64,000 bases of DNA from Minisyncoccota bacterium (GTDB lineage: Bacteria; Patescibacteriota; Minisyncoccia; UBA6257; 2-01-FULL-56-20), in NCBI GenBank assembly GCA_036510525.1, contig DATCDU010000034.1, positions 976 through 64,975 on the forward strand. Direction: 5' to 3'. The translations under genes were made by a program, and so were the position numbers. The notes under the pieces are model-generated. The model did not search any database. It was not told the origin of the DNA and was given only the letters and a program-made list of their open reading frames with translations. Shown here one piece after another: positions 20,826-27,022 of the stretch (position 1 is the first letter of the stretch; every line of letters starts with the position of its first letter).

Positions 20826-20942
20826 GATGTCGGCACATCCTACTTTCCCCGCCCGAAGGCAAGTATCATGGGATAGGGACGCTTTCACTTCTCTGTTCGG
20901 AATGGGAAGAGGTGGGACACGCCCGAATGAAGCACCGACATC
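20826..20942 (-). rRNA. rrf: 5S ribosomal RNA
   Basis: Minus-strand sequence GATGTCGGTGC...CCCACCTCTTCCCATTCCGAACAGAGAAGTGAAAGCGTCC...GCCGACATC. The conserved loop C motif CCGAAC-AGAAGTGAAAC and the closing helix I are both present. Confidence 0.8.
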
Positions 20943-21019: not shown

Positions 21020-21304
21020 TCACTGCCTAGTGATTAATGGATTCTTTATTGTAGATAAAGAATGAGATCTGTGTTTGTGCTTTGGAGGGTATCGCGGAGC
21101 CGCGAAGGCGGCGAGCGTAAGTGCGCGTTCAGCAGAACGCGACACGTCCCTACAAAGTACAAACACAGATCGAATGCAAGTCAGCATTGGGATGGTTGGC
21201 GTGGATTATTAGTACGTCTTGGCTAAAAACATTGCTATTCTTACACCGAACGCCTATCAACGTCATAGTCTATGACGAAATCACGCATACCTAATCTTGG
21301 GGTG

Positions 21305-21337
<33 letters not shown>

Positions 21338-21456
21338 CTTCCATACATAGCTACCCGGCAATTCACTTGGTAGCAAAGCCGGTAGACCAGAGGTATGTTC
21401 AGCCCAGTCCTCTCGTACTAAGGCCAACTCCCCTCAAGTATGTAACGCCTGCAGCA

Positions 21457-21488
<32 letters not shown>

Positions 21489-22401
21489 CAATTGTACCTC
21501 TTATTACTAAGAGCATTAGACTATACCTTTTCCAGGATTCCACCCTGGAACTGACGTTTTAATGCAGAGATAAGCGTCTCATCCTTGCATTCCGATCGTT
21601 TTACCGATCAAGTCGTTACGGGGACTGTCAATCTTATAGATCATCGAAGGGATGATGTAAGGCTGGATGATCGCTTTGAATTTTTCATAGTCATTTCGAC
21701 CGATATGGATCTTTTGTTTGGAACGATCTTTTATGATCGTTGCCGAAACATCATACCGCTCTTTCAAGAATGTTCGGATCATATACTGCTCCGATTCTCG
21801 AAAACTATGCGTGCTGAGCGTAAAGCTCTGCACAGTATTCGCACCGTCATCCATAAACCAAATTGCCATCATCTTTGGAGTGAACAGATCAAAAACTTCT
21901 TCTGGCAATATCTTCACGCTGTTTTTATAAAAACAAGCATGAATCATGCCGAATTCCTCCAAGCTTTTGGTGTGAAAATACCATGAAACTTCATGAATAT
22001 TCCTTTTGGGATTCGTCCATGAGATTTCCCTTGGCCTTTTTGAAACCAAATTCTGAAGAACTTTGTATTTCCAGAAAACATATTCTTTCTGTTTTTCTCC
22101 GTGATGCACTCTAAAACGAGCGGTAACCGGACTACAAAGTCCGATCGACCGACATTCTAAACGCGCATCTCCTAACAATGACCCAATGATCACATCCAAT
22201 TGATGTGATGGAAAAGAAGATTGGAGTCTTCCCACGATATTGACCATCTGAAAATAATAAATGATCTACATTAAATCTTTATTAAATTTGATTAGGCCTC
22301 TACCGTTATGAGTCAGTTTACTGTTCCATTTATGTTGTTTTCTTGGTTTTTCAACCAAGCCTCGAGTAATGAATTACTGGGCTCATTTGAAGTATTCACT
22401 T
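21489..22401 (-). mobile_element. Group I intron in 23S domain V (peptidyl-transferase-centre region, about E. coli position 2585) carrying a LAGLIDADG ORF
   Basis: The exon sequence GCGTGAGCTGGGT ends at 22402 and resumes with UCAGACCGUCGUGAGACAG at 21488. The ~913 nt in between contains the LAGLIDADG ORF and an S-like element (AAGGTATAGTCTAA) near its 3' end. Confidence 0.65.
21579..22247 (-). CDS. LAGLIDADG homing endonuclease (intron-encoded)
   Basis: 222 aa with the motifs VIIGSLLGDARLE and MAIWFMDDGANT. It lies entirely inside the 23S intron. Confidence 0.8.
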   Translation of the reverse strand: MVNIVGRLQSSFPSHQLDVIIGSLLGDARLECRSIGLCSPVTARFRVHHGEKQKEYVFWKYKVLQNLVSKRPREISWTNPKRNIHEVSWYFHTKSLEEFGMIHACFYKNSVKILPEEVFDLFTPKMMAIWFMDDGANTVQSFTLSTHSFRESEQYMIRTFLKERYDVSATIIKDRSKQKIHIGRNDYEKFKAIIQPYIIPSMIYKIDSPRNDLIGKTIGMQG

Positions 22402-23065
22402 ACCCAGCTCACGTGCCACTTTAATTGGCGAACAGCCAAACGCTTGGGAGCTTCTACACCCCCGCGCTGTGGCGAGCCGACATCGAGGTGCCGAGCATTG
22501 TCGTCGCTAGGGACGCTCGGACAATACTAGCCTGTTATCCCCGGAGTAGCTTTTATCCGGTGTCTCCGGCCTTTCTATGAAGGGCCGTCGGGTCACTAAC
22601 TTCTGCTTTCGCACCTGCTCGTCTTGTATGACTCGCAGTCAAGCCAGCTTTTGCGTTTGCACGTCCTGCCCGATTTCCATCCGGGCTAAGCTGACCTTAA
22701 TAAACTCCTCCGTTACTCTTTTGGAGGAAAACGCCCCATTTAAACTGCCTACCAAGCACTGTCTTAGTGTAGTTTCCCCGAAGGGTTCTCCACCAGTTAG
22801 ACGTTAAAGTTTTAAAAATGGCTGTTTCATTGTCGGATCCACGTCACCCAAAAGCGACGCTTCAAATCCTCACCACTACGCTACGTAGTAAAACTCTAAA
22901 ATCAATGCCAAGCTGCAGTAAAGCTTCCGGGGTCTTTTCGTCCCGCTGCAGGTATCCCGCGTCTTCACGGGAATCGCATTTTCACCGAGCTCATCGTTGA
23001 GACAGTTCTCCGGTCGTTACACCTTTCGTGCGCTTCGGAACTTACCCGAAAAGGAATTGCGCTCA

Positions 23066-24320
23066 AACATGTTACAACACTTTTTGTTGGCCAAAACATT
23101 TCTGCTTGACTCTCTATGTCGCCATAGAGTTCGGACTATATCTTATTCAACTGATCGTTGAATTTCGGCATATAGTCTCTGAGGATTTTCGCTTGCGCGA
23201 ATCTTTCCTGCTGATTGACCGCACCGAACGCATTGTCACTCTTTCGAGTAGCGTCGGATACTGACGGTTATTCCAGCATTTAGCCGAATTTTACTAAGGC
23301 AATGCATTCCGCTCAACCTTAGAACGATTTACTCTGTTATTCTGCTCCGTTTCTAGAGCAACTCTGCATGTCGCCATGCAGTTCGGACTATATCATCTCT
23401 AAATCGCTTTAGAGTCTGGCGTATAGTCTCTGAGGATTTTATTAGATCTTGAACTTGTCCCGAGCAGTATCGAGAATATATTCAATCGAATGTATTCTAA
23501 ATCTTCCTTCGGCATTCATTGAATGAGCCAAGCGGACAATCCGCTCAAATCCTTCTCTGTTGCGATGCAATCCTTCATCCATCATATAAACAATAATGGC
23601 GAACTTCCGAAATGCATCTGCTTTTGTTGCCAACGGATACTGTTCGAAAAAAGGAATAATCTTTTGAATCAGATTATCTCTCCCCTCGACAGTAAGTGAT
23701 AAAACATCACTTCCAGATTTCTTATCGATCCTTCCCGCTCCTAATACTTCACGAAAAAGTTCCAGTAGGTCATGATGGTTTTTGTGCTGATAAATTTGAA
23801 ATTTAGCCAACACAATCCAACCTGATCGTAATGTCGGATGTTTTGCAAACGACACATTGAAACTTCCTTCGCCATCCACAAAACCTGCAAGAAAATATTT
23901 CATGGATTCTTCATCCAATTTTTTCAATTCTTGGTAAGAATTTGCAGCTGGCAAATCTAATAATCTTTCCTGCTGATTATCTGCACCGATCATATTTTCA
24001 CGCTAACACATCAACATTAAATCTTTATTAAAAGATTTTTGATGAGAAAAGCGTAATGTCGGATACTCAGGGTTTCCAGCATTTGGCCAGATTTTATAAC
24101 TACAATCGTTATGTCTATAGTTATCGCTGACATTGACGAGGGCTTGAATCAGTGAGCAGTGTATTGCTACACCACCCCCAATCTTGACCTTCTCGCATCG
24201 GTCAGGTGTCACCCCCTATACATCCTCTTGCGAGTTAGCAGGGAGCTGTGTTTTTGGTAAACAGTCGCCAGAGATTCTTTAGCTGCGGCCCTCTTGCGAG
24301 GGCAGGCCTTATTGCTAACT
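23066..24320 (-). mobile_element. Group I intron region in the 23S helix 69-71 area (E. coli ~1915-1931), probably two adjacent introns or a twintron; one carries a LAGLIDADG ORF
   Basis: The exon GCGGCCGTAA ends near 24320 and the exon GAGCGCAATTCCTTTTCGGGTAAGTTCCG resumes near 23064. The interval holds two copies of the group I catalytic core (an R-like CAGAGACTATA and an S-like AAGATATAGTCC) at 23100-23190 and 23355-23440 on the minus strand. Confidence 0.6.
23442..23993 (-). CDS. LAGLIDADG homing endonuclease (intron-encoded)
   Basis: 183 aa with the motif YFLAGFVDGEGSF. It lies immediately 5' (in the minus orientation) of the intron core. Confidence 0.8.
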   Translation of the reverse strand: MIGADNQQERLLDLPAANSYQELKKLDEESMKYFLAGFVDGEGSFNVSFAKHPTLRSGWIVLAKFQIYQHKNHHDLLELFREVLGAGRIDKKSGSDVLSLTVEGRDNLIQKIIPFFEQYPLATKADAFRKFAIIVYMMDEGLHRNREGFERIVRLAHSMNAEGRFRIHSIEYILDTARDKFKI

Positions 24321-25536
24321 TACGGCCGCTATTTTGCCTAGTTCCTTAACGATGAATCACTCGTTCCCCTTGGGCTACTCGCCCTATCCACCAGTGTCGG
24401 TTTACGGTACGGAGACCATACGCTCGATTTGGCCAGATTTTTCTCGAAAGGCACTTCACAGATGTCGGCTAAGTAAATTCTTAACCTTCTCTCGGTACAC
24501 GCTTGCGCTTAATACAAAGAATGCCAAACCAATAAGGCACATCTGCTTATCTCCTTTGTCCTCTGGTTATGATCGTACGGTCGGGCTGGAATATTAACCA
24601 GCTTCCCATCGACTGCCCCTTTCGGGATTGCCTTAGGACCGCCTCACCCGTGGTTGATTGCCAGTGCCACGGAAACCTTGGATTTTCGGGGTTCCAATTT
24701 CTCATTGGGATTGTGGTTACTCATTCCAACATTTTCTCTTCCGGCCGCTCCAGTCACCCTCGCGGGTTGACCTTCACTGCAGGCCGAAATGCTCTCCTAC
24801 CACGTACACCTCCCGAAGGAAGTGTACATCCGTATCTTCGGTACCATGCTTAGCCCCGGTACATTTTCGGCGCCACGACCCGTCGAATAGTGAGTTGTTA
24901 CACACTCTTTAAAGGATGGCTACCTCTAAGCCAACCTCCTATCTGTCTATGGGTTATGACTACCTTTCACACTTAGCATGGATTTAGGGACCTTAGATGA
25001 CGATCTGGGCTCTTCCCCTCGCGACCACGGAGCTTAGCCCCCGCAGTCTAACTAGCAAGATCTTGACTCTCGGTATTCGGAGTTTGATTGATCGTTCGGT
25101 CTTTCGACCTGTAACGATCATCCAGTGCTCTACCCCCAAGAGGAACTCTTGCCGCCAGTCCTAAAACTGTTTCGGAGAGAACCAGCTATTACGTTATTCG
25201 ATTAGCTTTTCACTCCTTACCTCAGCTCATCCGAAGATTTTGAACAATCAACCGGTTCGGGCCTCCCTCCCGATTTCTCGGGAGTTCACCCTGGCCAAGG
25301 CAAGCTCATAACGCTTCGGGTCTATCTTCTGCTGCATATAGTTCGCCCTATTCAGACTCGCTTTCGCTATGCCTTCACGCTATGCGCGCTTAGACTGCAA
25401 CAAAAAATAAGTCGTTGGATCATTCTTCAATAGGCACACTGTTACACTCGTCCGCGGATTGCTCCGCAGCCGTTCGTGCTTCAGTTCCTTGTAGGCAAAC
25501 GGTTTCAGGTTCTATTTCAACGGCCTCACCGGCCTG

Positions 25537-25573
<37 letters not shown>

Positions 25574-26886
25574 ATCTAGAAAAGTATTTAGCCTTACCTG
25601 ATAGTACAGGTGTATTCCTCCGGAACTGTTTTACTCCGAAGTACTCGAGTTAAAAAACTAAGGAGACCAATTGTTTTCGTCTAGGGGGCTATCACCCGCT
25701 CTGGCGCCGCTTTCCAGACGGCTTTGACTAACAAAAGATTTTTTTACTCCTTCACGAATAGCAAATAACGAAACGCACTGTTTGAAGAGCGCGCTACGTT
25801 ATTTACTAAACAGCGTCTTTAGACTATACCCCAAGGTTGCAAAATAAATCACAACCTTAGTTTGGGCTGTTCCCTGTTCTCTCGCCGATACTTGGGGAAT
25901 AACTGATTTGTTCTTTTTTCCTCCGCTTACTGGAATGTTTTACTTCAGCGGGTACGCGAATCGATTGCTCGAAACAATTGAGGATTACTCAATTAGGTTT
26001 CCCCATTCGGACACCCCCGGATCATAGATTGCTACGCATCTCCCCGAGGCATTTCGTTGCTACGCCACGTCCTTCATCGCCTTTTCTAGTCTAGGCATCC
26101 ACCGTTCGCCCTTATTTGCCAACCATCCCAATGCTGACTTGCTCGTGATGTGCACGGCTTTGAAGTCGTTAAATAAGAATTGACGACCTAAAAGTCATGC
26201 AGCCCACTCGCCATCGTTGATAAAAAAAATCAACGACAACGTTTGACCCTGTCCGTCACGAGAAATTGACTACATATGCGTATGCAGCGATCCGGCCCGC
26301 CCGCGATGCGGACGTTAGCGACCAGACCTAATAGTGACACAGGGTCTCCATATTATGTCCTCCGACTCTACAATTCGGAGTTCCGCCAAATCGGCGAATG
26401 ATTTGAAATAGCACTGCACGGTATCGCGAGACGCCGTAGGATATCAAACGCCAAGAAAAAAATCAGCCGCACACAGCGGCCGCTGACTGCTTCAAAGAAG
26501 CGGCTTCAGCCGGAGTGTTTTGAGAGGATTAAAGTCTTTGCCATTCGTATCTTAGGGATAAGTATACTCAGCTTGAAAAGGGTGTCAAGAGGCATACCTG
26601 CGCGCTCGGCACCAACGCTGAATCCCATGAATAATTTCATTTTTTAGACCATTATGGCATCATTAACCTAGGCGAATTACCCAGGGGAGGTCCCTGTGCA
26701 TTTTTCCATCATTGAAGATCTTTTAGTAACTGCAACTGCGGCGGTCGTCCTGCTCGTAGTTGCATGTGTCCGCTCAGAATCATCGAAAAAATAACGGGCG
26801 AATAGACAGAAGTGTTCTCTAGCCGCCAAGCCGCCGGGCTTCCCAATGGGAAGACCGGCATTTTTTATCGGCTCTCTCGTCCGGAG

Positions 26887-26950: not shown

Positions 26951-26951
26951 G

Positions 26952-27022
26952 TCGGGCCGCCGGGAATCGAACCCGGTCTTTACGAACCCGAATCGCACGT
27001 ACTACCGGTATACTACGGCCCG
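26952..27022 (-). tRNA. tRNA-Pro (anticodon CGG); CCA not encoded
   Basis: Minus strand: CGGGCCG-UA-GUAU-ACCGGUA-GUAC-G-UGCGA-UUCGGGU-UCGUA-AAGAC-CGGG-UUCGAUU-CCCGG-CGGCCCG. This is a canonical cloverleaf with the T-loop GTTCGATTCC. Confidence 0.8.

Follow-up and report, generated by a model that had tools for sequence, protein, structure and literature searches.

What arrangement of introns accounts for a group I catalytic core that is found twice within a single interrupted region of a bacterial 23S rRNA gene? The question is raised by a 64-kb stretch of DNA from a Minisyncoccota bacterium of the candidate phyla radiation (CPR), referred to as the window throughout, for which a previous inspection of the letters without database searches (the sequence-only reading) had reported a duplicated core element at 23100-23440 and had proposed either two adjacent introns, at the L1917 and L1931 sites and with a tiny exon in between, or a twintron. 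The analysis described here indicates, with a probability that we set at about 92% by taking into account the pairing, the junctions and the relatives of both copies, that the repeated core is that of two separate, complete group I introns, L1917 and L1931, in the helix 69-71 region of the 23S rRNA gene of a CPR bacterium.

The extent of the duplication

Two copies of the group I P7-P3'-P8-P7'-P9 block are present on the minus strand (table 1). The composite pattern CAGAGACTATAYGCC-N(15-40)-GATATAGTCCGAAC gives exactly two matches in the 64-kb window, both on the minus strand, and is absent from all of 100 shuffled sequences, and a repeat search of the window returned the same core duplication as two repeat families (D1, 88%, and D3, 96%), so that the presence of a duplicated core was borne out. 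The distance of 165 nt between the two units also agrees with that initially given, while the likeness of the two approximately 85-nt units, set at about 75%, is real but amounts to 71% by gapped alignment.

The extent of the duplication had, however, been underestimated. The 5' halves of the cores (P3-P4-P5-P4'-P6) are repeated too (families D2, D5 and D6, 81-87%), with copies lying 762-805 nt apart because of the presence of an open reading frame (ORF) inside the upstream one. Thus, the entire ribozyme core, beyond its 3' half, is duplicated, and one of the two copies is split by a large insertion.

Table 1. Features of the 23S rRNA locus; positions are those of the window.
Feature	Position	Strand	Evidence or remark
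23S rRNA gene including three introns	26125..21192	minus	1834 bits with Rfam LSU_rRNA_bacteria; 26125 corresponds to model position 1
P1 of the L1917 intron, 5' exon strand AUAACUAU, helix 69 loop	24124..24117	minus	ends at U1917 = 24117
L1917 group I intron, 787 nt	24116..23330	minus	P1, P10, P3-P9 and P9.1 on alignment A1
Internal guide sequence of the L1917 intron	24109..24096	minus	ACGAUU (P10, 24109..24104), then GUAGUUAU (P1, 24103..24096)
LAGLIDADG homing endonuclease ORF, 183 aa, single-motif, in the P6 loop of the L1917 intron	23993..23442	minus	Pfam PF00961
P7-P3'-P8-P7' block of the L1917 intron	23432..23381	minus	unit 1 of the sequence-only reading
Mini-exon, 14 nt, AAUCGUUCUAAGGU	23329..23316	minus	E. 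coli 1918-1931: helix 69 3' strand and CUAAGGU
L1931 group I intron, 252 nt, without ORF	23315..23064	minus	Rfam Intron_gpI, 66.6 bits
Internal guide sequence of the L1931 intron, GCCUUAG	23300..23294	minus	P1 with mini-exon CUAAGGU; 100% of cells paired, 11 introns
P7-P3'-P8-P7' block of the L1931 intron	23181..23129	minus	unit 2 of the sequence-only reading
Third intron, 913 nt, after U2584	22401..21489	minus	LSU alignment, 935-nt insertion after GCUGGGU
LAGLIDADG_2 ORF of the third intron	22247..21579	minus	Pfam PF03161, 127.3 bits
5S rRNA	20939..20828	minus	Rfam

Structure and junctions of the two introns

Eighty related loci were fetched through homologues of the intron-encoded endonuclease, and their introns were grouped by insertion site and aligned after removal of the ORFs and addition of short exon flanks. 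The alignment of eight L1917 introns (A1) comprises 66 pairs with 96.7% of the cells paired and 20 pairs showing a compensatory change; sliding the partners by 1-3 columns lowered the paired fraction to 28-43%, and none of 500 shuffles scored as high. RNAalifold independently recovered P1, P7, P8, P9 and P9.1 of the L1917 intron along with the exon-exon stem of helix 69. The corresponding alignment of 11 L1931 introns (A2) has 78 pairs, 88.5% of the cells paired and 31 pairs with a compensatory change.

In the L1917 intron, P1, P10, P3, P4, P5, P5a, P6, P7, P8, P9 and P9.1 could all be written from the window sequence on the A1 structure, with a P3-P9 core that includes the P3/P7 pseudoknot. 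The exon on its 5' side reads ...GUCAGCGAUAACUAU, with U1917 (24117) as the last base, and the intron begins with AGACAUAACGAUUGUAGUUAU. P1, formed by AUAACUAU and GUAGUUAU, places a U.G pair at the splice site and is fully paired (100% of the cells) in the eight related introns; P10 joins ACGAUU to AAUCGU at 23329..23324. As a whole, the guide is a run of 14 contiguous nucleotides which, the U.G pair apart, is complementary to the exons once ligated (AUAACUAU followed by AAUCGU).

The L1931 intron also has a U.G pair in P1 (CUAAGGU/GCCUUAG, at U1931) and a P3-P9 core with the P3/P7 pseudoknot. Across the 11 introns, 86-100% of the cells are paired in P3, P4, P5, P7, P8 and P9; compensatory changes are seen in P3, P5, P8 and P9, and five of the six P3 pairs covary. 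P10 (AGCGCA/UGCAUU) contains one mismatch and is weakly conserved, with 72% of the cells paired. At the 3' end the intron reads ...GUUUG, with the canonical terminal G at 23064, and AGCGCAAUUCC comes next. A 12-nt likeness between the start of this intron (TTGAGCGGAATG) and its 3' junction (TTGAGCGCAATT), detected as repeat family D4, was put down to chance, since the ORF contains a third copy that is just as good.

The P1 and P10 pairings that the sequence-only reading had suggested looking for at the splice sites are therefore found in both introns, P1 with its U.G pair in each case, and both cores, instead of one only, fold into a complete P3-P9 scaffold with covariation. The group I covariance model of Rfam (RF00028), the other check suggested, gave a divided outcome. 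With 66.6 bits (E = 1e-14; match 23340..23112, model positions 1-253), the L1931 intron exceeds the gathering score of 50, but the L1917 intron reaches 32.1 bits, below the threshold of 50, and is matched in its 3' half. The low score and the misaligned 5' half are explained by the 552-nt ORF in P6, which breaks the alignment to the model.

The mini-exon and the spliced product

Of the candidate exon sequence noticed earlier in the spacer between the two units, only AATCGTTCTAAGGT is exonic; ATAACAGAGTA, just before it, still belongs to the upstream intron as its 3' tail. The 14-nt mini-exon fully matches the uninterrupted exon of the relatives and restores helix 69 through the 6-bp pairing of AGCGAU (1906-1911) with AUCGUU (1919-1924). 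The upstream intron uses the first 6 nt of the mini-exon for P10, and the downstream one the last 7 nt for P1, so that 13 of the 14 nucleotides are taken by the guide sequences of the flanking introns without any overlap.

Removal of both introns yields GAUAACUAUAAUCGUUCUAAGGUAGCGCAAUUCC, which is the sequence obtained from four relatives (L003, L004, L019 and L023) once their single L1923 intron is removed. These relatives read ...AACTATAATCGT-intron-TCTAAGGTAGCGCAATTCC, matching exactly the joined exons of the window, with exons of the form ...GCGATAACTATAATCGT-intron-TCTAAGGTAGCGCA(A/T)TTCC; the intron-free reading of the helix 69 region on which the placement of the junctions is based is AACUAUAAUCGUUCUAAGGUAGCG. 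The ligated product is thus predicted to be GAUAACUAU-AAUCGUUCUAAGGU-AGCGCAAUUCC. The sequence of the intron-free site is GTCAGCGATAACTATAATCGTTCTAAGGTAGCGCAATTCC.

By analogy with known group I introns, both are likely to be self-splicing. Each ribozyme would fold on the pre-rRNA with its own guide sequence paired to its own 5' exon, and each would be excised by the standard two-step, guanosine-initiated transesterification, leading to ligation of exon 1, the mini-exon and exon 3. Since the guides use non-overlapping parts of the mini-exon, both ribozymes could dock at once. At the DNA level, a homodimer of the endonuclease would cut intron-free alleles, and repair would copy the L1917 intron while the ORF-less neighbour, 14 bp away, would be carried along; endonuclease activity and such co-conversion are presumed on the same grounds of analogy.

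The third intron and the limits of the gene

The 23S rRNA gene of the window is 93-98% identical to that of a Minisyncoccia metagenome-assembled genome (MAG; L012) and 89-99% identical to that of a Paceibacterota MAG (L010), as found by BLAST against the fetched loci, which identifies the host as a member of the CPR (Patescibacteria). The end of the gene at 22342, as given by Rfam, is an artefact caused by a third intron; a separate Rfam search of that region placed the 3' end at 21192. BLAST also showed that the segment of the third intron is absent from the relatives, whose 23S sequence realigns exactly at 22402 and 21488. A P1 helix (CUGGGU/GCCCAG) can be read from the sequence, and the 3' end resembles P7'/P9 of group I introns, although the Rfam group I match is of 18.2 bits only.

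Relatives of the two introns and alternative explanations

The layout of L1917 intron, 14-nt exon and L1931 intron recurs in at least seven other CPR loci (L010/L029, L011, L012/L033, L055, L069, L009/L027/L028 and L026). The L1917 intron is found alone in three loci (L024, L034 and L042), and the L1931 intron alone in L036 and in many others. The two introns of the window are 66% identical to each other overall, and the nearest relative of each is its positional orthologue, with 85% identity to the L1917 intron of L024 and 91% to the L1931 intron of L055. On the basis of these comparisons, the two are lineages of a single intron family, each specific to its site, that are often found together. 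In one 1168-nt contig (L022), a hybrid intron is observed, in which a 5' end of the L1917 type is combined with a 3' end of the L1931 type and the mini-exon is missing; it is either a recombinant or the product of assembly collapse.

These data bear on the other ways in which a duplicated core may arise. A twintron, namely one group I intron inside another, excised sequentially and with no true exon between the cores, would account for the presence of two cores in one interruption of approximately 1.05 kb, and the Rfam LSU alignment indeed models a single 1035-nt insertion. With that alignment, however, ACGGUCCUAAGGU is placed on AGUGUUGUAACAU as exon, a sequence that is unable to pair with the 5' strand of helix 69 and does not occur in the exons of the relatives. 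Furthermore, what lies between the cores is the exact rRNA segment 1918-1931 that is needed for helix 69, conserved and identical in the relatives, each guide sequence pairs with an rRNA exon instead of an intron, and other genomes have either intron at its site without the other. The twintron, left as an option by the sequence-only reading, is contradicted by these observations, and its probability is practically nil.

It might also be argued that a single functional intron is accompanied by a decaying duplicate of its core, generated by a recent internal duplication, as the core stretches are 81-96% identical and the downstream copy lacks an ORF. Both copies, however, have complete P1-P10 structures with valid junctions, and it is the ORF-less L1931 intron itself that passes the Rfam threshold. 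A recent duplication, or transposition between the two sites, is also at variance with a mutual identity of 66%, given that each shares 85-91% with introns occupying its site in other genomes, and is considered very improbable. Hardly any weight, as little as to the twintron, is given to an assembly artefact, in which the metagenome assembler would have duplicated a single intron or joined two strains into a chimera. Repeated cores can confuse assemblers, and the related contig with the hybrid intron and the missing mini-exon looks like a collapse or recombinant across the cores; but a 1706-nt Logan contig from a different run (L002) is 100% identical to the window across both introns, and the same layout is present in the other loci, which come from different studies. 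The two adjacent introns with a tiny exon between them, as initially proposed, are instead favoured by the P1, P10 and complete core that each of them possesses.

The terminal adenosine of the L1917 intron

An exception to the canonical features is the last nucleotide of the L1917 intron, which reads ...CAGAGUA before AAUCG and ends in A instead of the near-universal terminal guanosine. P10 and the exon sequence of the relatives together fix where the junction lies. Use of G23332 or G23334 as the 3' splice site, with the 5' site after U1915/U1917, was rejected, as it would lead to helix 69 loops unlike those of the relatives (AACUUAAAUCG, AACUAUUAAAUCG and similar). The terminal A, and the whole sequence with it, is the same in the independent Logan assembly. 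The L1917 intron of L024, which is sister to that of the window and approximately 15% diverged, ends in ...CAGAAUA, and that of L069 in ...AACAUUA; in neither of them is an alternative terminal G present near the intron end. The L069 intron is not a sister of the other two, the three being monophyletic in only 1 of 200 bootstraps, and its terminal A is of separate origin. The orthologues at L1917 in L010, L011, L034, L042 and L026 end in G. Among the L1931 introns, those of L009/L027/L028 and of L065/L068 end in A, and that of L014 in U or C. Overall, about five independent lineages with a non-G terminal nucleotide were counted among the approximately 45 CPR 23S introns examined. Thus, A-ended introns both persist and recur.

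By taking into account the role of the terminal guanosine, the second splicing step of the L1917 intron may be impaired. In the extreme case, loss of the terminal G would have crippled the 3' splice site, making this 23S rRNA non-functional or reliant on a host factor or on another rRNA copy. Besides the terminal A itself, an argument in favour is that P7, where guanosine is bound, is unchanged with respect to that of the G-ended neighbour, and therefore no compensation is visible. On the other hand, the same terminal A is present in the independent assembly, is common to the L024 intron and arose separately in L069, and the remaining ribozyme and the endonuclease ORF are intact. A precedent is also available: to judge by the title of a report on them, one of the two 23S introns of Coxiella burnetii lacks the canonical terminal G, and this is said to be the intron Cbu.L1917, which reportedly ends in A and still splices. 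A crippled site is, therefore, held to be unlikely, and the terminal A is probably tolerated by the L1917 intron.

The endonuclease gene and its exchange

The ORF in the P6 loop is intact and scores 73.4 bits with the LAGLIDADG_1 profile (PF00961; cut-off 23.1). Its first 14 codons or so overlap the P5a'/P5'/P4'/P6 part of the core. The 1340 homologues found are mostly of about 160-210 aa, and the closest ones (at least 60% identity) of 153-207 aa. A search of solved structures returned generic LAGLIDADG matches only, I-CeuI being detectable as a homologue (E = 6e-19), and gave no clue to target specificity.

The closest relatives of the protein, with 66-73% identity, are encoded in L1923 introns (L003, L004, L023 and L083). 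In a neighbour-joining tree the intron-encoded proteins fall into three clades, two of which follow the insertion site (L1917 and L1931). The third one contains the protein of the window, all of the L1923 proteins, the L1931-intron proteins of L006 and of L084 and that of L022. In L006 and in L084 a mini-exon of 8 nt, TCTAAGGT, separates the ORF-bearing L1931 intron from an adjacent L1923 intron without ORF.

A sliding-window comparison revealed the mosaic nature of the L1917 intron. In most windows of the comparison, the ribozyme (intron positions 1-120 and 681-787) is 76-98% identical to the L1917 introns of L024/L010, with lower values to the L1923/L1931-borne genes, whereas for the ORF (positions 161-680) the identity is 30-61% to the L1917 introns of L024/L010 and, in most windows, 55-81% to the L1923/L1931-borne genes. 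From these values, the ribozyme is of the L1917 type and the gene belongs to the L1923-associated clade. Tree and mosaic thus show that endonuclease genes are passed among the ribozymes of sites 1917, 1923 and 1931, probably through recombination within the common core, by which the N-terminus shared by the proteins is encoded. The shared N-terminal sequence MIGADNQQ is encoded by conserved core, and this segment, with the conserved P6'/P7 across the ORF, may provide the homologous flanks for gene exchange.

It is tempting to go further and regard the two introns as one composite mobile unit, in which a borrowed endonuclease with an L1923-centred target would sustain a collaborative form of homing, a proposal that we consider speculative and more probably wrong than right. 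If such a target were kept, the enzyme would be predicted to cleave alleles without introns at a point between the two insertion sites; both introns would be driven in together by co-conversion, and protection of the host gene would depend on the L1931 intron, which has no ORF and lies within a few bp of the presumed cut. I-CeuI has such an L1923-centred target and cuts at CTAA, a sequence contained in the mini-exon.

Comparison with known systems

The combination of L1917 and L1931 introns is already known from cyanobacteria, plastids and other CPR bacteria. Coxiella burnetii offers a partial parallel, in that its two introns, Cbu.L1917 together with Cbu.L1951, are said to flank a 34-bp exon; it thus differs from the window in the length of the exon and in the second site, L1951. 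The Coxiella L1917 intron has been described as IB2, a subgroup other than that of the IB4 introns with which it was compared (PMC11019260).

A close bacterial parallel of the arrangement set out here is provided by Synechococcus sp. C9, whose 23S rRNA gene carries group I introns at L1917, L1931 and L2593, all of them with single-motif LAGLIDADG genes, without P2 and with ORFs extending into the core (Haugen et al. 2007, PMC1995217). As in the window, L1917 and L1931 introns are found in one bacterial 23S gene, with an exon of 14 nt between them according to the numbering of the sites; a third intron lies nearer the 3' end, and single-motif LAGLIDADG ORFs that enter the ribozyme core are combined with a complex P5 region and no P2. 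The window differs in that its L1931 intron is ORF-less, its L1917 intron is A-ended and its host is a CPR bacterium, and its third intron, compared with L2593, lies after U2584 and encodes a LAGLIDADG_2 protein.

For CPR bacteria, 1917 and 1931 are listed in a survey among the main or frequent sites of LAGLIDADG_1 insertions in the 23S rRNA gene; a gene may have several insertions, and a given site may be occupied by a version with an ORF or by one without (Tsurumaki et al. 2024, PMC11270868). These insertions match those of the window in host group, sites, LAGLIDADG_1 ORFs of approximately 180 aa, the presence or absence of an ORF and the occurrence of several in one gene. There, insertions are classed by site and Pfam domain, and in the relevant passages splice junctions, a mini-exon, a non-G terminus or exchange of endonucleases between neighbouring sites are not described. 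The plastid rrl gene of Navicula vanseea contains IB4 introns at L1917 and L1931 (PMC11019260). These plastid and green-algal chloroplast IB4 introns form a pair at the same two sites as in the window; both Navicula introns have their own endonuclease genes, grouping by site, whereas the L1917 endonuclease of the window belongs to the L1923-associated clade. Introns of the I-CeuI type at L1923 house the closest relatives of this endonuclease, while the ribozyme that carries it in the window is of the L1917 type, 6 nt upstream.

The published introns of Synechococcus C9, of the Navicula vanseea plastid and of the CPR survey thus make the arrangement one of a known kind, and the current understanding is not overturned. 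What is less ordinary is the A-ended L1917 intron along with the swapped-in endonuclease gene. The locus provides a clean bacterial example of tandem ribozymes with a common mini-exon. For annotation purposes, exact coordinates are now available for a 23S gene that standard models end at the wrong position (22342 instead of 21192), and the 14-nt exon overlooked by aligners is placed. The recurrence of A-ended introns bears on how strictly a terminal guanosine is needed for exon ligation: if introns that do not end in G splice, the terminal-G rule would be looser in nature than has been assumed.

Crowded intron arrangements between positions 1917 and 1951

Among the related loci, which were retrieved through homologues of the LAGLIDADG endonuclease of the window, two (L006, 1807-2884, and L084, approx. 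543-1620) contain a tandem pair in which the 8-nt mini-exon TCTAAGGT separates an L1923 intron without an ORF from an L1931 intron that carries an endonuclease gene. This arrangement differs from the L1917 and L1931 pair of the window, where the intervening exon is 14 nt long; the endonuclease carried by the L1931 intron of L006 and L084 is 63-67% identical to that of the window. An extra intron is found after GGGUAA (at about L1951) in L004/L005/L021, L006, L024, L034 and L083, in some cases with a second LAGLIDADG ORF, so that up to three introns crowd the 1917-1951 region in some CPR 23S genes.

Several group I introns of CPR 23S genes end in a base other than G; this is seen in about five independent lineages among the approximately 45 introns examined. 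The L1917 introns of the window (23330), of L024 and, independently, of L069 end in A, as do the L1931 introns of L009/L027/L028 and L065/L068, while the last base of the L014 intron is U or C.

The third intron and the surroundings of the 23S gene

The 23S gene of the window contains a third intron, inserted after U2584, with CUGGGU/GCCCAG as P1, G as the last base and an Rfam group I score of only 18.2 bits. Because this intron interrupts the gene, the whole-window Rfam match stops wrongly at 22342, the true end being at 21192. The intron is absent from most relatives; a homologue appears to be present in L069.

Both long inverted repeats of the 23S-5S spacer may be processing stems. No 16S rRNA gene is found within the 64-kb window; the 16S gene and the 23S-5S pair are apparently not linked.

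Features of the third intron, the endonuclease start and the gene surroundings
Feature	Position	Strand	Remarks
Third 23S intron, 913 nt	22401..21489	minus	after U2584
LAGLIDADG_2 ORF of third intron, 222 aa	22247..21579	minus	127.3 bits
Endonuclease N-terminus MIGADNQQ(ER)	23993..23950	minus	encoded by conserved ribozyme core (P5a'/P5'/P4'/J4-6)
Inverted repeat, 43-nt arms, 86% complementary, 9-nt loop	20940-21034		23S-5S spacer, adjoins 5S gene
Inverted repeat, 24-nt arms, 92%, 58 nt apart	21066-21171		23S-5S spacer
tRNA-Pro(CGG)	26951..27022		upstream neighbour of 23S

Hybrid intron and dual-coding endonuclease start

One hybrid intron, with an L1917-type 5' end and an L1931-type 3' end, occupies positions 187-988 of L022 (JGI Ga0210388_10424982), where the 14-nt mini-exon is absent. 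Either a genuine recombination took place between the two homologous cores, which would entail the loss of part of helix 69, or the sequence collapsed across the repeat during assembly.

The endonucleases of the L1917, L1923 and L1931 introns share the MIGADNQQ(ER) start (homologous starts, L003-L084). This dual-coding segment could provide a flank for recombination that exchanges endonuclease genes.
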